IMG/VR virus record: IMGVR_UViG_3300045988_004821
DNA from: a virus
Taxonomy: Duplodnaviria; Heunggongvirae; Uroviricota; Caudoviricetes
DNA length: 64,000 bases
Reading direction: 5' to 3' (one strand)
The notes beneath the pieces were generated by a model. That model was not told the DNA's origin and searched no databases. It saw only the letters and a list, made by a program, of their open reading frames with translations. A program made the translations under genes and the position numbers. Below are positions 1,565 to 54,455 of the stretch, in pieces. Position 1 is the first letter of the stretch. Every line of letters begins with the position of its first letter.

Positions 1565-2095
1565 ATGAACAAATTTCAAGCTATCAACTTCATTCGTTCA
1601 AATGCTGTAATGTCTAAGCCTGTAAAAGACACATACGAATTCCGTTGTGATGGGGTACATTTCGCAACAATCACCAAATCAGAAAACGGGGCTTATTACG
1701 TTCATCGTCGTAATGTTTCAACCGTTGTAGTCTCTCACTTTATGCAAGCTGTAGCAGAATTATTACCGTTATTCTTAGAGATTTACTTAGATGAGTGTAA
1801 AAACGTTCACAACCACGTTAAAAACCTTTTAAACGGTTATAAAATGGCTTATGAACGTTCTATCAAGTCACTAAACAAGTTTTACAATGCACCTGCAAAT
1901 ACTGTTTCAATGGCTTATGATGTAAACGGTGAGTTAGTTAGTCTCTTTAAAGTGGAAGAAATTAAACTGTATAATCTACGTCCTAGTGGTTACTCTAAGA
2001 CTCTTGGTGAAGGTTTAACGTTCAATATCAAGAACTTAGAAAAAACTTTAAAAGATATTGAAAAAGATATTGACGAGACAATAAAAAGCCTGTAA
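1565..2095 (+). CDS. hypothetical early protein (176 aa)
   Basis: ORF after leader cassette. Confidence 0.55.
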   Translation: MNKFQAINFIRSNAVMSKPVKDTYEFRCDGVHFATITKSENGAYYVHRRNVSTVVVSHFMQAVAELLPLFLEIYLDECKNVHNHVKNLLNGYKMAYERSIKSLNKFYNAPANTVSMAYDVNGELVSLFKVEEIKLYNLRPSGYSKTLGEGLTFNIKNLEKTLKDIEKDIDETIKSL

Positions 2096-2161
2096 ATTGT
2101 CAATCAACGGGGAGGGAATGACCTTCCCCACTAAATAAAGTCCTAAACTGGAGTTATCAAG
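2090..2161 (+). promoter_or_regulatory. Conserved leader cassette copy
   Basis: TGTAAATTGTCAATCAACGGGGAGGGAATGACCTTCCCCACTAAATAAAGTCCTAAACTGGAG then ATG at 2162. Confidence 0.6.
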
Positions 2162-9799: not shown

Positions 9800-10935
9800 T
9801 ATGCCCCTCCTGCTGGGTTAACTGTAACTGTTGCTGCATTAGATGTTACAGAGCCACCTGCACCAGTCACTACGCAAGTGTAGCTTCCTGTATCAGTAGT
9901 GGTTGCACCTTCTTTGGTGTAAGTTGCAGTTGTTGCGTCTGGGATGTCTTCCTCACCCTTCTTCCACTGATAACCTGTTGCACCTGTTGCTACAACGTTG
10001 AGTGTCAATGTCTCACCTTCGGTGATTTCCTGATTGGTTGGTTGTTGAGTGATTACCGGAAGAGCATTAACAGTAACTGTCGCTGCATTAGAAGTAACTG
10101 TTGTACCACCTGCACCAGTAACTACACAGGTATATGAACCAGCATCAGCAGGGGCTGCTTTAGCTTTCGTGTAAGTTGCACCAGTTGCACTAGGGATGTT
10201 CACATTGTCTTTCTTCCATTGGTAACCTGTTGCACCTGTTGCAGCCACTTCCAAGTTGATATTTCCACCCTCATTGATGGTCTGACTAGAAGGTTGCTGT
10301 GTAATCACAGGTAGTGCATTAACAGTAACTGTTGCCGCGTCTGAAGTAACACTTGTCCCAGCCTCTCCAGATACAACACAAGTATATGAACCAGCATCAG
10401 AAGGTACTACAGACTGTTTTGTGTAGGTTGCAGATGTGGCGCTAGTGATATCCTCACCATCTTTTTTCCATTGATATCCAGTGGCATTAGTTGCAATAAC
10501 GCTTAGGTTAAGTGTACCACCTTCATTTACTGTTTGATTGGTTGGTTGCTGAGTGATTGCTGGTGGCTTGATAGCATCCTTCAACTTAGCATTCAACATT
10601 GAGAATGGTTTAACTCTTGCCAACCATTCACAATAAACTGTATCAACGTCTTTACCATTGATAATTGCATATTGTAAGTCCATGAAGAAGTCAGAAGTTC
10701 TCATTTGAGCACCAACGCTGTAAAGCAACTCATCACTAAATGGGACTTTGTAGTCTGGTTTGTAGTCAAACTTCTCAACTTCTGCGATATCAGCTTCAGG
10801 CCAATATGAGCTATAGGTGAGTGGTAAAATAGCCTCTTGATATGTTCTAAAATCATATCTCTTACCAGCCTTTACATTTGCAACGAAGCCCTTCACAAAC
10901 TCTTTGAAGTCTGGGTAAGTCTTTGCTTTAATCAT
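9799..10935 (-). CDS. protein with N-terminal domain plus three tandem Ig-like repeats (378 aa)
   Basis: Three ~88-aa repeats each with YQWKK and GSYTCVV motifs; N-terminal 125 aa paralogous to the adjacent 123-aa protein. Confidence 0.6.
   Translation of the reverse strand: MIKAKTYPDFKEFVKGFVANVKAGKRYDFRTYQEAILPLTYSSYWPEADIAEVEKFDYKPDYKVPFSDELLYSVGAQMRTSDFFMDLQYAIINGKDVDTVYCEWLARVKPFSMLNAKLKDAIKPPAITQQPTNQTVNEGGTLNLSVIATNATGYQWKKDGEDITSATSATYTKQSVVPSDAGSYTCVVSGEAGTSVTSDAATVTVNALPVITQQPSSQTINEGGNINLEVAATGATGYQWKKDNVNIPSATGATYTKAKAAPADAGSYTCVVTGAGGTTVTSNAATVTVNALPVITQQPTNQEITEGETLTLNVVATGATGYQWKKGEEDIPDATTATYTKEGATTTDTGSYTCVVTGAGGSVTSNAATVTVNPAGGA
9805..10560 (-). repeat. three tandem ~250-bp coding repeats (Ig-like domain units)
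   Basis: Repeated PVITQQP..GYQWKK..GSYTCVV..ATVTVNA units in the translation. Confidence 0.6.
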
Positions 10936-40454: not shown

Positions 40455-42809
40455 ATGGCAGATTACAAATTGAGTGAGCTAAACTCAATCGACACAATCC
40501 GTTCAGATGACCTTCTTCATGTCAGAGTTAAAAAGAGACCTGAAATGCTGGGTGATGAAGACCGTCGAATGACCTATCAAGATTTCTTAGCATCTTTTAA
40601 GCTTGAAAGATTTGTTCAGATTGCTGGTAGCACTATGACGGGTGACTTAGGAATTGTTAAGCTACTTTACGGTGGCAAGGCTGTATTCGACCCCACAGGC
40701 TCTTCTGAGATTACTGTTGGTGATGTTTTAAAGACTTTTAAAATCAACGCAAACGGCCTTAAACTAACTATTGCAGACGCTTCAAGGTCGGCAACTGTTT
40801 ATCATACTTTGAATAAGCCAAGCCCTAATGAACTTGGGATGAGAACTAATGAAGAGAATGACGCAAGGTATGCAAGACTAGCCGTGAATAATACCTTTAG
40901 AGGTACTCAAGCTATCCTCTCTGACAATGAAGCGCTCATTATTAAAAATATCACTCAAGGTGCTCCACTCTATCTTCGTGGTCAAGATGCAGATGGTACT
41001 AACAGATGGTATCTAGGTAATGATAATAGGGGTACAAATAATCTTGTATTGAAGAATGTAAAGTCTGACGTTTCAATTGCTATTTTAGAGAATTTGGTGA
41101 CAGTCAACAGAACTCTTCAAATTGCTGGCCAAGTTCAGCCTTCAAGTTTTGCTAACTTAGATGCTAGGTATTTTACCCAGACAGCAGCTAATCAGAGATT
41201 TGCGCAGTTAGCTGGTAATAACACTTTTACTGGTACTAACACTTTCTCTAATTTTGTTGCTAAGAAGAATGCTGAAGCCATCACTCTGCAAAATGTGGAC
41301 ACTGCTCCCTCTTTATATATCCGAGCAAGAAAGTCAGATGGGAATTATAAGTGGTACATTGGTAATGACGGTGATGAGAACATTTTAAAAATCTATAACT
41401 ATCTAACAAAAACACAAGTCTCACTAGGTAACACTATTGCCATGAGCAAAACAGTTCAAATTGATGGTCAAGTACAACCTTCTGATTGGACTAACATTGA
41501 TTCTAGATATATTCCGGCAGCCAATTTGAGTAATCTCCCTAAACTTAATGTGTCTAATACTTTTACAAATGTGCAAACTATTGTATCTAACAACGAGGGT
41601 TTGGTATTAAGGAACTTGACACAGGGGCAGCCACTATATATCCGTGGTGTTGATACTGAGAATGTTTCTAGATGGTGGTTAGGTGTAGGTGGTCCAAACT
41701 CTAATGTGGTAACACTTAACAACACCTATTCTGACACTAAAATCTCACTTGGTGGCTCATCAGTAATGACTAATAAGAGCTTAGCTATTACTGGTCAAGT
41801 ACAACCTTCTGACTTCTCTAACTTAGATGCTAGATACTATACCCAAGCTGCCGCAAACGCAAGATATATGCTTGCAAGCATCACTGGTTCGGCTTCTGAA
41901 GCAGATGGTGGTGATGGTGTTGCATGGGATGCAAAAACAGGTCTTTATAAGGTTACTAACACCACTGGACAGTCTTCTTCACTTGTATATAACATGTTTT
42001 TAGGGACTAGTTCTACACCATCTGCACAATTAAAGTTTTCGTTTAAAAATGGTGGGATGTGGTATAGAACATCAAGAGATGCCTATGGCTTCGAAGTTAA
42101 TTGGTCTAAAGTTTACACGGAAGCACAAAAACCAACCCCTTCAGAGATTGGTGCATACACTAAAGCTGAAACTGACCAGAAAATTGCAACAGCAATTAGT
42201 GACTCTACAGACCTTAACAAAATCTATCCAGTTGGTATTGTAACGTGGTTTAACAGTAATGTTAACCCTAATACAGCACTCCCTGGTCTAACTTGGACGT
42301 ACCTGAATAATGGTGTTGGTAGAACTATCAGAATCGCAGCAGCAAACGGTTCAGATGTTGCTACAACTGGTGGTTCAGATTCTGTGACATTAGCTGTTGG
42401 TAACTTACCATCACACACTCACAGTTTCTCTGCTACCACTTCATCTTTTGATTATGGTACGAAGAACACTAACAGTACTGGTGCACATACCCATTCAGTT
42501 AGTGGTACTGCTGCATCTGCTGGGCAACACGCACACAGAATTTCACAGGGTGACAACGCTAACGTTTCATCAGGTAGAGTCGCATCTTCAAACTCTGCTC
42601 AGACCCATGTTGGTTGGACTGAAAATGATGGTGTTCACACCCACTCAGTTAGTGGTACTGCTGCATCTGCTGGTGGACATGCTCACTCTGTAGGTATTGG
42701 TGCTCATAGCCACACAGTTAGTGGTAACACTGGTGGTACAGGTTCTGGTTCAGCATTTAGTGTTACTAACCAGTTCTACAAGTTAATGGCTTGGGTAAGA
42801 ACTGCTTAA
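40455..42809 (+). CDS. long tail fibre protein with C-terminal His-box repeats (784 aa)
   Basis: Internal repeated LxIxGQVQPSDxxNxDxRY segments; C-terminal HTHS/AHSH repeats; ends FYKLMAWVRTA (paralogous to SFVLYVWQRTA). Confidence 0.7.
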   Translation: MADYKLSELNSIDTIRSDDLLHVRVKKRPEMLGDEDRRMTYQDFLASFKLERFVQIAGSTMTGDLGIVKLLYGGKAVFDPTGSSEITVGDVLKTFKINANGLKLTIADASRSATVYHTLNKPSPNELGMRTNEENDARYARLAVNNTFRGTQAILSDNEALIIKNITQGAPLYLRGQDADGTNRWYLGNDNRGTNNLVLKNVKSDVSIAILENLVTVNRTLQIAGQVQPSSFANLDARYFTQTAANQRFAQLAGNNTFTGTNTFSNFVAKKNAEAITLQNVDTAPSLYIRARKSDGNYKWYIGNDGDENILKIYNYLTKTQVSLGNTIAMSKTVQIDGQVQPSDWTNIDSRYIPAANLSNLPKLNVSNTFTNVQTIVSNNEGLVLRNLTQGQPLYIRGVDTENVSRWWLGVGGPNSNVVTLNNTYSDTKISLGGSSVMTNKSLAITGQVQPSDFSNLDARYYTQAAANARYMLASITGSASEADGGDGVAWDAKTGLYKVTNTTGQSSSLVYNMFLGTSSTPSAQLKFSFKNGGMWYRTSRDAYGFEVNWSKVYTEAQKPTPSEIGAYTKAETDQKIATAISDSTDLNKIYPVGIVTWFNSNVNPNTALPGLTWTYLNNGVGRTIRIAAANGSDVATTGGSDSVTLAVGNLPSHTHSFSATTSSFDYGTKNTNSTGAHTHSVSGTAASAGQHAHRISQGDNANVSSGRVASSNSAQTHVGWTENDGVHTHSVSGTAASAGGHAHSVGIGAHSHTVSGNTGGTGSGSAFSVTNQFYKLMAWVRTA

Positions 42810-48905: not shown

Positions 48906-49094
48906 TCAACAACTTTCTAATAAAGTTTTATGAAGATTTTGCTTAACGACCCGCCTAACATGCCTATGCTCTTTCTTAATAAAGAGTGACCTCTTCTTGA
49001 TAGAGCGCCTATTCTTGTAAGTGTTGCTAGGATACTTATCATGAACCGGACAACAACTCCCCGGTTTTACAAACTTGATAATCTCTCTTTTCAC
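48906..49094 (-). CDS. possible small basic protein (62 aa)
   Basis: Short ORF, lysine/arginine-rich; weak. Confidence 0.3.
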   Translation of the reverse strand: MKREIIKFVKPGSCCPVHDKYPSNTYKNRRSIKKRSLFIKKEHRHVRRVVKQNLHKTLLESC

Positions 49095-50194
49095 TATTCA
49101 TAATCCCTAATAACGAGACCAACAGGGAACTGTAAAGAACCCTTACGAGTCATCTTCTGGAACTGAACCGTTAAAGGCTTCCCGATAAACTCTTCAGGGT
49201 GCTCAGCAAGATACTGTTTCTTCTCGTGTGTAGTTTTCCATGAGACATCTACAAAGACGTTAGGAAGAGTCTCTACAACGAACTTGCCATGACCACGTTT
49301 ATCGGTCTTTACACCAGTCACTTTAAACTCTTCAGTGTGCATCTTCTTATGCTTAATCAAGAAGTATGAACGGTGACAACACTCATAGAAGGAGTCTTTA
49401 GAGATTGAACGGTACATTGCACCTTCAAACTTAGCTTCAACCCACTTATCATGGGCTTCATCAAACTCTTCCCAAGAATTTACACGGATAGTCTGTACAG
49501 GAACCACTCTACAGGTATCCCCAAGCTGAACGATAGGTGAACTATCAATAACTTCACGACGCTCAGGCCAAGATTTTGAATTGTCACAGATATCATACCA
49601 GTAGAATTTAAGAAGGTGACGGTCTGGATTGTCAGCATTCTTAATCATGGATACAATATCTTCTAAGTCCCAACCATGAGCATAAATCTCTCCATCAAAG
49701 TCTTCAACTTGTGGATGTAATTTAAGCAACAAAAGCAAATCTGGAATTAGTTCTGCTGGAACGTTGTAAACAGTATTCTCACGAGAATAAGCCGTGAAGC
49801 TAACTGAATCATCATCTCTTGAAATTCTACAACGGACACCATCAAGTTTTGGTTGAGCATCAGCAGGGAACTTCAGATACTTTGCATGGCTAACCTTTGC
49901 AGCATCATGAGCAAGCTGTACACCTACCTTCTCAGTATTCTGTGCAGATTCTTTTGTGTAAGCATAACCTTTACGGTCAACTTGCTTTTTATACTTAGCA
50001 GTAACTTCAAAGAGAGCTTGCTGTTCAGCGTTACGCTCATTCTTTTTACCGATGTTCTTAGGCTCTGCTGTATACTCTTCAAACATCATCTTGCCATTCT
50101 CTTTACCATAGGTTGTAATAACTTTGTCACCTACAGCAACACATGACCAGACGTTGAAGGAACCATCTTTATTTTGTTTGTACAGAATTGTCAT
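49094..50194 (-). CDS. ATP-dependent DNA ligase
   Basis: Adenylation motif I KLDGVR; about 366 aa; start set at the second ATG, which has a GAGG Shine-Dalgarno. Confidence 0.8.
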   Translation of the reverse strand: MTILYKQNKDGSFNVWSCVAVGDKVITTYGKENGKMMFEEYTAEPKNIGKKNERNAEQQALFEVTAKYKKQVDRKGYAYTKESAQNTEKVGVQLAHDAAKVSHAKYLKFPADAQPKLDGVRCRISRDDDSVSFTAYSRENTVYNVPAELIPDLLLLLKLHPQVEDFDGEIYAHGWDLEDIVSMIKNADNPDRHLLKFYWYDICDNSKSWPERREVIDSSPIVQLGDTCRVVPVQTIRVNSWEEFDEAHDKWVEAKFEGAMYRSISKDSFYECCHRSYFLIKHKKMHTEEFKVTGVKTDKRGHGKFVVETLPNVFVDVSWKTTHEKKQYLAEHPEEFIGKPLTVQFQKMTRKGSLQFPVGLVIRDYE

Positions 50195-50387
50195 TTTTAA
50201 CCTCTGAGTGATACCAAGTATTGCAAGCATTACATGCGTAAAGCTCTAAGTCATTTTTATCTGGTTTGTGGAAACAGTTTGACCCACAACGACACCGGAA
50301 TAGCTTACCATCAACACGAAGAATGAATGTTTCAAGCTCACCATCTTCTGTAAGAACTGCGTTCTTAAATTTATCTTCTACAGTCAT
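50169..50387 (-). CDS. small zinc-ribbon protein (72 aa)
   Basis: CRCGSNC..CNACNTW motifs. Confidence 0.45.
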   Translation of the reverse strand: MTVEDKFKNAVLTEDGELETFILRVDGKLFRCRCGSNCFHKPDKNDLELYACNACNTWYHSEVKNDNSVQTK

Positions 50388-50600: not shown

Positions 50601-50837
50601 TCACTCAATAACCGTAGTGTGTGATTGACCATTTTTTCCATAACTATAAGATGTTGTTGTTTGAGAGTTTGGACATCTGACAACAACAATATCTCTGCTT
50701 ATGGCATCACCATGCAACTTATAGACTTTACAATCTTGCATCTCTGGTGGGAGACTATAAGAAGCATTTTTATCTTCATAAGAAGGGTTGCAGCCAGCTA
50801 GAAAAATAACACCAAGCACAATTACTGGTTTCCACAT
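50601..50837 (-). CDS. small lipoprotein (78 aa), candidate Llp-like superinfection-exclusion protein
   Basis: Lipoprotein signal MWKPVIVLGVIFLAGC (lipobox LAGC); mature part about 60 aa with two Cys. Confidence 0.55.
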   Translation of the reverse strand: MWKPVIVLGVIFLAGCNPSYEDKNASYSLPPEMQDCKVYKLHGDAISRDIVVVRCPNSQTTTSYSYGKNGQSHTTVIE

Positions 50838-50994
50838 AATACTTCTCCTGTCTGTTGTTCACGATACTCAAGCTCTCTGAAAGTTTTGTAGTAATGAGCT
50901 TTGTAGTACGCTATCTCATTACTTTTTACGTTTGTTTTTAGTAGGTTCCAATCAGAGTCTTTACCCATCCTTCCCCAGAGACTATACAACCTAT

Positions 50995-51228
50995 TCATAA
51001 CAATTCCAAAATATCAATACGTTCACCCTTAAGAACACCTGTGCGGTCTCTTGCAATCTTACCGTCAACAATAAGGATATGCACACTCCTTAAAGTGTCC
51101 CGATTAAAACCTTTTACGAACTTACAAGGCATTACCACAATAGACATCTCCTGAATCAACTCTGGAGTATAGCAATTGTCGTGAAGTTGCTGAATAACGT
51201 CTGCAAGTGTCATTTTTGATGTCTCCAA
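50995..51228 (-). CDS. small protein, tandem paralogue A (77 aa)
   Basis: Shares IVDGKIARDRTGVLKGERIDILELL with the 51416-51634 product (IAGGKIAKDKTGYLKGERVNIESLL). Confidence 0.5.
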   Translation of the reverse strand: METSKMTLADVIQQLHDNCYTPELIQEMSIVVMPCKFVKGFNRDTLRSVHILIVDGKIARDRTGVLKGERIDILELL

Positions 51229-51419
51229 TACTCAATATCAATAAGTTCTTGTGCAATGCTTTTCAGATTGCCTTTCAAGAAAACCTTCTCAGAACCTGAA
51301 AGAGATGAATTGTCAATTAACCTGTTCATTCTCTCAAACAACTTCTGCTTACGATTCTTGATAGTTTCCTTTGAAGCACCTTTCATCATCGCTGCATGGG
51401 TTCTTCCACGGTGGCTCAT
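51210..51419 (-). CDS. hypothetical basic protein (69 aa)
   Basis: ORF between the two paralogues. Confidence 0.35.
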   Translation of the reverse strand: MSHRGRTHAAMMKGASKETIKNRKQKLFERMNRLIDNSSLSGSEKVFLKGNLKSIAQELIDIEYWRHQK

Positions 51420-51634
51420 AGTAAACTCTCAATATTTACACGCTCACCTTTCAAGTATCCTGTCTTATCTTTTGCGATTTTGCCTCCAGCGATAAAGATA
51501 TCTACTCTACGTAGAACTTCAGGGTTTACCTTCAAATTCCTACAGCTACTGCAAAGAACAATAAACAGCCCTTCAATCTCTTTTTGAGAGTAACCAGCAC
51601 ATTGCAACTGGACTTCAATTTCTGAAAGTGTCAT
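51416..51634 (-). CDS. small protein, tandem paralogue B (72 aa)
   Basis: Paralogous to the 50995-51228 product. Confidence 0.5.
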   Translation of the reverse strand: MTLSEIEVQLQCAGYSQKEIEGLFIVLCSSCRNLKVNPEVLRRVDIFIAGGKIAKDKTGYLKGERVNIESLL

Positions 51635-51695: not shown

Positions 51696-54395
51696 TTAGT
51701 GTACTTCAAGCCAGCTTTTACCAACCTTACCAGTACCTGTTACAAGTGTTTCTTTCTTAAGACCTAAGTTCTTAGAAGCTTGTCCATAATACCAGTCAGT
51801 AACTGCTTTCACTTCTGCCGTCATACTCTCTGGACATTCCCAGCTTGTTTCATCGTGATATGCACAGAGTAAACGAGCACCAATAGCTGGTTGACGACCA
51901 TTTAACTTCATCAAACCTTCGTCAATCATACGACGACAAGCAAGGTTAATTGCCTCATTTTGAATCTGAGCCTCTGAACCCATCAAAAGATAGTTCAACA
52001 GCTTGTGTGGAGATTTACACCACAACCAAGCTCCAGCAACCTTTACAAATCCCCCTTTAGAGATTGCAGCAGTCTTACCAAACACCTCTTCAAGTGCCTT
52101 TTTAGTTGCTTTGTAGTCAGCTTCCAAGTTATCTAATAGTTTCTTAATCTTTGGCAAACGCACAAAGTAAGTCTGTTTAGTTAATGCACCTTCCTGAGTA
52201 GTGGCTGCCTTAATAGTTTTAGCAAACTTCTCATCACCTGCACCAAACAGTAGTGCATAGATACCATTCTTAGCTTTCTTACGACCTTTGCTAATCTCAT
52301 GAAGAAGATTCTCATCCTGAGTAGCTCGACAAGTCAAGATGTCCTGCTCATCGTTCAAGCTAAAGTAGATACTGTTCAGTGTATGTGCATCAGTCCCTGA
52401 ATAGACAACGTACAGGTCATTCTCAGAGTCATAGCGAAGGTACTTATCAATCTCTGGGTTGAGGTACTCATCAAAATGTTTGCAGTAATAGCGTCCATCT
52501 TCTTGACGAATGAACTCAATTTCCTCTTTACCTTGCGTTACCGCTTTGGTGAAGTCTTTATCACCCATAAAGTTACAAAGAAGAACTAGCTGGGCTGAGT
52601 TCATATCTACAGAGACAACGTTAGTGCCTTCCTCACAAATCCACACTGCCCTCATTGGTTCCCCATAGACAGCAGCACCAGACGGTACGTTTACAATACC
52701 ATATTGTGTCATACGTCCAGTTGAAGTACCAAACACCATTGCACCAGCACTAAGGCGACCATCTGGACGAATCTGGTTCAACCAGCCTTTTTCATCGTCC
52801 TTTGAGTTCTCAATAGTTCTGCGTCGGTGCATCAAAGTGTAGTATTTCGCAATCTTCTGTCCAAGCTCACCTTCAATCGTATCATAAGATGATTCAGTAA
52901 GTTTTGGTGAAGTACGGATTAAGCAAGGCTCAAGCAAATCTGTGTACTTCTTCACAGACCAGTTATGTTCAATGTACTGTACACCTTCATGTTCAACATA
53001 ACTCAAACCACACCGCTCAACCATTTCCTGCCACTTAGGATGTTTTGTAATCATCTTTTTATTGTCTTTGAAACGACAAACTTTGACAGGGCGACCATCA
53101 GAGTCTTTCTTGTAGTTCCAGTCATCTGGAATCCAACCAACTGATTTCAAGTAGTCTTTAACAACTGCTACCTGAGTCATACGAGAAACTTCAAACTCAA
53201 TTGGTGTATATGGTGCATCAATCAAACCTGTGTAGCGACTTGACTCAAGTTCAAAGTGGTTAACAACGTGGCTGTTATAATACTTCACAGTCTTAACTGT
53301 TTTTACTGGCTTCCAGTCTTTGCATTTCTTACCAATCTTTGCGTTCAACTCGTTGCAAATTGCACGAGCATCCTTCATTGCTACAAAACCTTCCTTGTAC
53401 TCTTCACCAGTTACAGAGTTGGTTGGTGTATAGCAATTTCTCTTTTCAATGTTAAAAATCTTTGTAGTTGGCTTACCAAATGGCTTGATTTCATATGTCT
53501 GCATCTCACCGTTACGTACCTGCTGACGGTACTTCGTCTTAGGGTACTTGGTAATTCTCTTCAGTCCATCTGCATGACCGAACGCTTCAACATACTCATT
53601 CCAAGCTTTTGCAAACTCTTCTCCAGTAACTTTACCTTTAGTCTTAATAGTTGGAGGAAGATGTGGTTCAACTTCTGAAGCAAGCTCATTAGTCAACTTG
53701 TCAAGTTCCTTCACATGGAACTCCATAAGCTCTTTATCAGCTTTCCAACCATTGATAGCTTGTTGACTCATCCAGAAAGATGTTTCTTTAGCTCGCATAT
53801 AGGTTTCATAAGTGTCTATACCACACTTCTTTAACTTCAGGTATTCATTATCCAGTGCACGTTTAGTTTTGGCGTTAATACGGATATCTTCTACAACACG
53901 AGTGAAGATTTCTGCATTCCACACACCCCAATGTTCAATCTCTGGTTTACGTACACCAACACGAGCACCCCATGCTGCCAAGCCATGAGCACCTTTATAG
54001 CCTTTTGGAGTTGGTCTATCCATCCACTGAACACGAGATTGGATAAGAGAATCCTGAAAGAAATTACTCCACGGCTTACACTTTGGATTATCAAAGTTCC
54101 ATAAATCAGGTGCAATGTGATTGAAAACCCACCAGTCATAACCCAGACCATTATGGATGCAAAGTCGTTTCGCCTTTAGTGCAAACTCAATACCTTCACG
54201 CAAACCACCCTTAATGTACTTGGTGTACTTGTGACCGAGGATAGGCTCATCTGTAAAAACCCATACAGGTGGCTCTTCATCATCAGATTTATAGTCTGCG
54301 AAAGCCATTACGTGCACTTTAGTGAACTCAAGGAGTAAACCATCAGTTTCTGTATCACCAACTAAATGTAAGTTTTTAAAATCTACGTTTTCCAT
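51696..54395 (-). CDS. DNA polymerase, family A, with 3'-5' exonuclease domain
   Basis: Exo I motif LVGDTETDGL; Pol A motifs VSVDMNSAQL, RKKAKNGIYALLFGAG and YHDE; start set at MENVDF with SD GAGGGAG. Confidence 0.85.
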   Translation of the reverse strand: MENVDFKNLHLVGDTETDGLLLEFTKVHVMAFADYKSDDEEPPVWVFTDEPILGHKYTKYIKGGLREGIEFALKAKRLCIHNGLGYDWWVFNHIAPDLWNFDNPKCKPWSNFFQDSLIQSRVQWMDRPTPKGYKGAHGLAAWGARVGVRKPEIEHWGVWNAEIFTRVVEDIRINAKTKRALDNEYLKLKKCGIDTYETYMRAKETSFWMSQQAINGWKADKELMEFHVKELDKLTNELASEVEPHLPPTIKTKGKVTGEEFAKAWNEYVEAFGHADGLKRITKYPKTKYRQQVRNGEMQTYEIKPFGKPTTKIFNIEKRNCYTPTNSVTGEEYKEGFVAMKDARAICNELNAKIGKKCKDWKPVKTVKTVKYYNSHVVNHFELESSRYTGLIDAPYTPIEFEVSRMTQVAVVKDYLKSVGWIPDDWNYKKDSDGRPVKVCRFKDNKKMITKHPKWQEMVERCGLSYVEHEGVQYIEHNWSVKKYTDLLEPCLIRTSPKLTESSYDTIEGELGQKIAKYYTLMHRRRTIENSKDDEKGWLNQIRPDGRLSAGAMVFGTSTGRMTQYGIVNVPSGAAVYGEPMRAVWICEEGTNVVSVDMNSAQLVLLCNFMGDKDFTKAVTQGKEEIEFIRQEDGRYYCKHFDEYLNPEIDKYLRYDSENDLYVVYSGTDAHTLNSIYFSLNDEQDILTCRATQDENLLHEISKGRKKAKNGIYALLFGAGDEKFAKTIKAATTQEGALTKQTYFVRLPKIKKLLDNLEADYKATKKALEEVFGKTAAISKGGFVKVAGAWLWCKSPHKLLNYLLMGSEAQIQNEAINLACRRMIDEGLMKLNGRQPAIGARLLCAYHDETSWECPESMTAEVKAVTDWYYGQASKNLGLKKETLVTGTGKVGKSWLEVH

Positions 54396-54455
54396 TTTTA
54401 CTCCCTCTAAAATCATTAACCTCATACATTACTGCAAAAAATTATAAAAAGCAAG

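Follow-up and report, generated by a model that had tools for sequence, protein, structure and literature searches.

What role a small lipoprotein gene plays within the replication region of a virulent phage, and whether its product belongs with the Llp-type superinfection-exclusion factors among which a first-pass annotation had placed it, is the question raised by the open reading frame at positions 50601..50837 (minus strand) of the 64,000-nucleotide stretch of viral DNA analysed here (hereafter the window). The window derives from a Felixounavirus, a Felix O1/wV8-like myovirus, and the 3 kb around the gene are 92-95% identical to the corresponding regions of Escherichia phages EcF-vB and mio and of Salmonella phage UAB_Phi87. 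The reading frame starts with ATG, includes the stop codon in its coordinates, and encodes a prolipoprotein of 78 aa (MWKPVIVLGVIFLAGCNPSYEDKNASYSLPPEMQDCKVYKLHGDAISRDIVVVRCPNSQTTTSYSYGKNGQSHTTVIE, that is, MWKPVIVLGVIFLAGC followed by NPSYEDKNASYSLPPEMQDCKVYKLHGDAISRDIVVVRCPNSQTTTSYSYGKNGQSHTTVIE). The copy of wV8 is 99% identical to it, and copies that are 94-99% identical are found in E. coli and Salmonella Felixounaviruses.

The signal peptide (residues 1-15, MWKPVIVLGVIFLAG; 50793..50837, minus strand as for all features of the gene) begins with a short, positively charged n-region (MWK), continues with a hydrophobic core of 10 residues, and ends with the L-A-G of the lipobox L-A-G-C. The lipobox cysteine, Cys16 (codon at 50790..50792), is predicted from the sequence to be lipid-modified and to become residue 1 of a mature part of 63 aa. 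Residues 17-78 (50604..50789) form a predicted periplasmic domain, marked by conserved cysteines and by two motifs, SYSLPPEMQDC (residues 26-36) and VVVRCPNSQTTT (residues 51-62), with the two further cysteines of the protein, Cys36 and Cys55, encoded at 50730..50732 and 50673..50675, respectively. The residue at position +2 is Asn, which according to the +2 rule of E. coli points to outer-membrane sorting, and this destination is predicted for the window protein. A Shine-Dalgarno-like AGGAG (50845..50849) precedes the ATG by 7 nt and falls within the 3' end of the preceding gene (50822..50998); in phage Moogle, a ribosome-binding site is annotated at this position for gene 40. The first 16 nt of the lipoprotein gene are shared with its upstream neighbour, stop codon included, an overlap compatible with translational coupling.

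When a lipobox filter was applied to the window, a single ORF passed out of the 161 with a length of 60 aa or more, and the product of 50601..50837 is the only convincing lipoprotein candidate within the 64 kb. The same filter returned at least one lipobox ORF in approximately 10% of shuffled windows; the lipobox alone is for this reason weak evidence, and the case for a lipoprotein therefore rests on conservation. This conservation is extensive. Cys16, Cys36 and Cys55 are invariant in 149 aligned homologues (31-92% identical), with P30, P56, T60 and K68 being near-invariant, and the consensus of the 149 members reads Y-x-LPxELxDCKxY ... VVRCPNSxTTT ... GK. The spacing of the cysteines is fixed within the family (about 20 residues from the lipid-bearing cysteine to the second, and about 18 from the second to the third), and nearly all members carry a lipobox signal peptide. 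Asp is present at position +2 in about 11% of the parsed members, and outer-membrane localisation may therefore not hold family-wide. Within the Felixounaviruses the gene displays a dN/dS of approximately 0.10, the same as the ligase gene, which indicates purifying selection. The gene is a real, conserved small-lipoprotein gene, and the first-pass description of a 78-aa lipoprotein with lipobox LAGC and two cysteines in a mature part of about 60 aa was borne out.

A profile search placed the window protein in phrog_902, a family without assigned function (E = 2e-16), and all full-length homologues carry precomputed Pfam matches to PF16225 (DUF4884), one of which is displayed at an E of at most 1e-5. 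Scans of the window protein itself against NCBIfam, PADLOC and a Pfam copy that lacks PF16225 gave nothing meaningful. Judged by these sequence matches, the gene is a member of the uncharacterised family catalogued as DUF4884 (PF16225) and phrog_902, and it has been on record in GenBank from the Felix O1 genome onwards, where its counterpart is ORF91. The family is large: a HMMER search of 1.84 billion cluster representatives recovered at least 645 clusters at 50% identity (E < 1e-3), and tblastn identified homologues in 587 GenBank phage records. The members that were fetched come from Felixounavirus and Mooglevirus among the Ounavirinae, a Straboviridae Aeromonas phage, Demerecviridae Vibrio phages, a Vequintavirinae phage and an Acinetobacter Saclayvirus, and include jumbo phages of 218-370 kb, the conserved motifs being common to phages of different families and of hosts from several genera. 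The GenBank homologues examined are labelled "hypothetical" or just "lipoprotein", and a search of the literature on the function of the DUF4884 family or on Felixounavirus lipoproteins found no functional work.

An AlphaFold2 model built from the 149-sequence alignment has moderate confidence (pLDDT 70, pTM 0.47) and shows a four-stranded beta meander preceded by one short strand. Two of the modelled strands (residues 37-42 and 50-54) form the first hairpin, and Cys36 and Cys55 are located at its open end, a position that fits a disulfide; in the model, a Cys36-Cys55 disulfide is probable. A fold search with the model among solved structures revealed no resembling structure, and a profile search of the PDB by sequence gave a chance match only (E = 0.5). 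The conservation of the motifs could be purely structural.

The gene is located between those for DNA ligase (49094..50230) and DNA polymerase (51696..54425), which agrees with the replication block in which it had initially been placed. Small zinc-ribbon proteins had also been noted as neighbours, and this holds for one candidate only, the product of 50169..50387 (72 aa, CxCx3C...CxxC, with a sub-threshold PHD match); the others are no obvious zinc ribbons. This cysteine-rich ORF (minus strand) reaches into the 5' end of the long ORF for DNA ligase, and its counterpart in phage mio (mio_68) is annotated as "DNA ligase", so that it may be either a separate zinc-ribbon protein or a mis-annotation. 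Two further ORFs on the minus strand, 50995..51228 and 51416..51634, are small paralogues that both belong to phrog_4230, a family without assigned function; they lie on either side of a 69-aa gene, immediately downstream of the gene for DNA polymerase.

Comparison with related phages revealed that the lipoprotein gene is accessory. It is absent from the syntenic site in EC6, SUSP1 and Meda, its slot being occupied by unrelated small genes in EC6 (1876..2130 of the extracted locus) and SUSP1 (1717..1944) and by nothing in Meda, and in several relatives an HNH endonuclease gene has been inserted behind that for the polymerase; this part of the genome is a hotspot of accessory-gene exchange. Two frameshifted copies of 64 aa (P0012 and P0013, on metagenomic contigs of 36.8 and 6.6 kb) diverge after approximately residue 43-47 and have lost the VVRCPNS motif. 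In Felixounaviruses the gene is thus dispensable, though under purifying selection. Viral contigs were scanned for further loci with a 25-sequence subset of the alignment, and an all-against-all BLAST of the ORFs from 28 loci, representing 21 divergent groups, revealed no recurring neighbour gene family besides the lipoprotein itself, which therefore appears as a self-contained cassette that works without a dedicated phage partner. Its surroundings generally consist of small genes of the early or replication region. In Felix O1, transcription of the flanking ORFs 90, 93 and 96 reaches its maximum at 25 min (PMC3185647, Table 3), while ORF91 is marked "NT" in the RT-PCR data. The gene is probably co-transcribed with the polymerase-ligase (early/middle) unit, and expression in the middle phase is predicted.

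The family is mostly phage-borne, and when 185,579 bacterial species genomes were scanned, its most conserved motif was found at one locus. This locus, in Hylemonella gracilis ATCC 19624 (NZ_AEGR01000062.1; 7980..8258 of the extracted locus), encodes a 92-aa DUF4884 lipoprotein downstream of a ComM-like Mg-chelatase gene, in the vicinity of genes for an Exo_endo_phos (secreted nuclease/phosphatase-family) protein with a hydrophobic, signal-like N-terminus and for two ABC-3C conflict-system (CTD10/DUF2326) proteins, a setting that looks like a defence island and not like a prophage. A further member was found in a P22-like phage (GCA_000438925.2, AUSC02000007.1; 6437..6697 of the extracted locus), where it lies in the nin region between DnaB and YbcO/RusA, with the genes for terminase and for the P22 portal and coat proteins downstream of it. 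The family thus extends beyond virulent phages.

The comparison with T5 Llp, whose sequence was verified against the T5 record (100% identity), was scrutinized at the level of sequence, structure, gene location and receptor. Both proteins are small lipoproteins of virulent phages with nearly the same length (77 aa for Llp versus 78 aa), the lipobox cysteine at position 16, and two further cysteines. The likeness in size and organisation that had suggested an Llp-type factor stands as far as an exported lipoprotein of about Llp size is concerned. The two further cysteines are spaced differently, being 47 residues apart in Llp (C26...C73) and 19 apart in the window protein (C36...C55). An hhalign comparison of the 149-sequence profile with Llp and with gp84 of phage pSf-1, a Cor-like lipoprotein encoded beside tail genes, aligned only the signal peptide (residues 1-19), and BLASTP of the window protein against Llp was insignificant (E = 0.25). 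The PHROG assigned to Llp is phrog_1119, "Cor superinfection exclusion protein" (E = 1e-19). The window protein, in contrast, matches phrog_902 only, and four of its distant homologues belong to phrog_902 as well. The fold search with the model found no Llp-like fold among solved structures, which presumably include FhuA-Llp.

Gene location and receptor use differ as well. The genes for Llp, Cor and Rtp45 neighbour the receptor-binding gene, and they encode proteins that jam the outer-membrane protein serving the phage as receptor (PMC9586334, PMC12685063), which for T5 Llp and Cor is FhuA (PMC9586334). The window gene, in contrast, is not adjacent to a receptor-binding gene: the tail-fibre gene (40455..42809, plus strand) is approximately 8 kb away on the opposite strand. 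Across 16 Felixounavirus contigs, the identity of the lipoprotein (83-99%) did not correlate with that of the tail fibre (63-84%), based on rough identity values (rho = 0.22, p = 0.40). The receptor reported for Felix O1 is LPS (PMC3185647), phage Bas63 depends on the LPS core (PMC8594841), and in genome-wide screens the Felixounaviruses are without receptor assignment and are attributed to clades recognising OPS/LPS (bioRxiv 10.64898/2026.04.02.716166). Because these phages are reported to use LPS and have no outer-membrane protein receptor assigned, the target that an Llp-type protein would need is removed. Unlike Llp and Cor, the lipoprotein of the window comes from a phage with no reported protein receptor, and its family is conserved across phages of many hosts. 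The Llp-type identity is not supported on these combined grounds, and the Llp label should not be transferred to the window gene.

Other small phage lipoproteins offer further parallels. As is predicted for the window protein, the superinfection-exclusion lipoproteins of Rtp45 and Oekolampad type are small periplasmic lipoproteins of the outer membrane (about 6 kDa); they bind LptDE, which demonstrates that envelope machines outside the TonB group, the LPS translocon included, can be targeted (PMC12685063). This precedent is relevant to an LPS-dependent phage. Rtp45 is, however, encoded beside the receptor-binding protein and blocks LptD, the phage's own receptor (PMC12685063), and no similarity to it was detected in the PDB sequence and fold searches, which may not have covered an Rtp45 entry. 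The o-spanin (Rz1-like; Moogle gp121) is likewise a small outer-membrane lipoprotein of the same phage group, but its gene overlaps that of the i-spanin and is located in a different region, beyond this window. The annotated, overlapping o-/i-spanin pair of Moogle (121/122, near rIIB) is conserved in 307 records, among them the close relatives UAB_69 and JN01 as well as wV8, and has no match in the 64-kb window. BLASTP of Moogle gp121 against the window lipoprotein gave no alignment even at E = 100, and inspection of the two neighbouring genes revealed no hydrophobic transmembrane stretch in either. The CPT annotators named the spanins of Moogle and left gene 40, the homologue of the window protein, as hypothetical (PMC4319497). 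With a separate i-/o-spanin pair present in relatives, identity with a spanin was rejected. In the T1-like phage Henu8, a DUF4884 gene is annotated alongside a gene for Cor and one for a spanin (PMC12210894), a co-occurrence which, based on the annotation in that paper, suggests that the role of DUF4884 is distinct from both. A profile check of the related phage pSf-1 found no DUF4884 member.

The explanation that we tentatively prefer is that the window protein would be an outer-membrane-anchored periplasmic effector which acts on a conserved envelope component, possibly with receptor-independent exclusion as a consequence. The precursor would be exported, lipid-modified at Cys16 and cleaved, and the beta-rich domain of about 60 residues, stapled by the Cys36-Cys55 disulfide, would face the periplasm. 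There, the conserved RCPNSxTTT loop and the LPxELxDC segment would bind a conserved component of the host envelope and not the phage's own receptor, and the envelope of the infected cell would be altered as a result. The most likely pay-off would be that the infected cell is protected, independently of the receptor, from a second attack (by superinfection, injection, or lysis from without), for instance through exclusion at a post-adsorption step or resistance to lysis from without. The protein would share its compartment with Llp, act on a different kind of target, and stand outside the Llp family. Both the target and the benefit are predicted. The motifs shared across hosts and phage families, combined with the low dN/dS, fit a conserved target better than an arms-race surface, and the defence-island-like and nin-region settings of two members, which are typical of exclusion or defence cargo, make us lean to a protective role, each of them being a single case. 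The T4 proteins Spackle (Sp) and Imm are an example of envelope-located, receptor-independent exclusion in a virulent myovirus; they are made before the late genes and are not lipoproteins. They provide a functional and purely conceptual analogy, for which homology is not expected (for the T4 context see bioRxiv 10.64898/2026.03.06.709160). Extended to the family as a whole, which is a rather doubtful step, the proposal would make DUF4884 a hitherto unrecognised phage-borne class of receptor-independent envelope effectors, exchanged between virulent and also some temperate phages of Gram-negatives. Its members would bind a conserved machine of the periplasm or outer membrane and leave the infected cell resistant to a second phage attack or to an envelope-based defence.

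Several other explanations were weighed against this proposal. Were the protein an exclusion factor of the Llp/Cor/Rtp45 type, it would bind the phage's own receptor, an outer-membrane protein, from the periplasmic side, alter the surface loops of this receptor, and block docking of the receptor-binding protein. The accessory status of the gene and the general organisation shared with T5 Llp are in line with such a role, but the alignment limited to the signal peptide, the different PHROG, the missing fold match, the distance and strand relative to the tail-fibre gene together with the lack of co-variation, and the reported use of LPS by Felixounaviruses all argue against it. So do the shared motifs in phages of hosts from several genera, purifying selection where diversification was not seen, and the annotation of both a Cor and a DUF4884 gene in Henu8, and we regard this role as improbable. 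A function in lysis, as an o-spanin-like or lysis-timing lipoprotein that disrupts or stabilises the outer membrane as infection comes to its end, has similarly poor prospects. Most small outer-membrane lipoproteins of phages are indeed o-spanins (PMC6139136), lysis genes are scattered in Felix O1-like phages (PMC4319497), and the N-terminal 43-60 residues of one distant member weakly match Rz-like spanin PHROGs (E = 6e-4 and 9e-4). This is opposed by the dedicated spanin pair that the relatives carry elsewhere, the lack of an adjacent gene for a membrane-protein partner, the predicted compact beta sheet with an internal disulfide, the viability of some relatives without the gene, and flanking genes that peak at 25 min and not late.

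Harder to separate from the preferred explanation is a role in host takeover or counter-defence, in which the lipoprotein would inhibit a periplasmic or outer-membrane function of the host (envelope-stress signalling, vesiculation, a murein enzyme, or an envelope defence sensor) to the benefit of the current infection and not for exclusion. A location in an early/middle block among small host-directed genes, motifs conserved across hosts, the dispensability of the gene and the absence of an evident phage partner would all suit such an inhibitor. Searches of the family libraries and of PDB sequences and folds, however, revealed no similarity to any known inhibitor, and the defence-like island of Hylemonella gracilis and the nin-region copy of a temperate phage fit protective cargo better than an anti-host weapon, so that we consider this role unlikely. 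That the gene does not encode a functional lipoprotein at all, the lipobox being due to chance or the gene being in decay, is very improbable: the rate of lipobox-like N-termini in shuffled windows, the frameshifted 64-aa copies and the relatives without the gene would be expected in that case, but the lipobox cysteine and both other cysteines are kept in hundreds of homologues, the dN/dS is that of a constrained gene, and translation is provided for by a good ribosome-binding site and by the overlap with the upstream gene. The remaining probability is assigned to functions other than these.

As it stands, the window gene is an ordinary conserved hypothetical gene, and the locus alone is of moderate to low significance. 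The family is of somewhat more interest, being widespread, motif-rich and easy to test. Among the small genes of large virulent phages that lack an explanation, DUF4884 is one of the more frequent, and it combines a sharply conserved motif with a simple, testable architecture. Its target would show whether phages possess a general means of altering the Gram-negative envelope independently of the receptor and from the periplasmic side, a route that would complement the receptor-specific mechanisms of Llp, Cor and Rtp45. Felix O1-like phages serve in the typing, biocontrol and therapy of Salmonella and E. coli, and a gene for exclusion or envelope modification, if this is indeed its role, would affect the design of phage cocktails.

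Two minor observations concern the wider family. A homologue is encoded at 10001..10255 of the locus extracted from contig Ga0495683_0000001 (JGI 3300047323; 2,230,803 bp), where the neighbouring genes are almost without Pfam matches, the exceptions being ankyrin repeats, a Cys-tRNA synthetase and a dUTPase; this contig could be a giant virus, a megaphage-like genome, or a very unusual genome. Many homologues possess C-terminal extensions that are absent from the window copy, consisting of one or two V(V/I)DGVxY hairpin-like repeats, of a conserved helical tail (...LKLxALxKLTxEERKALGL), or of an extra cysteine-containing module (members noted for extensions are P0036, P0043 and P0085; P0034, P0082 and P0105; and many others).
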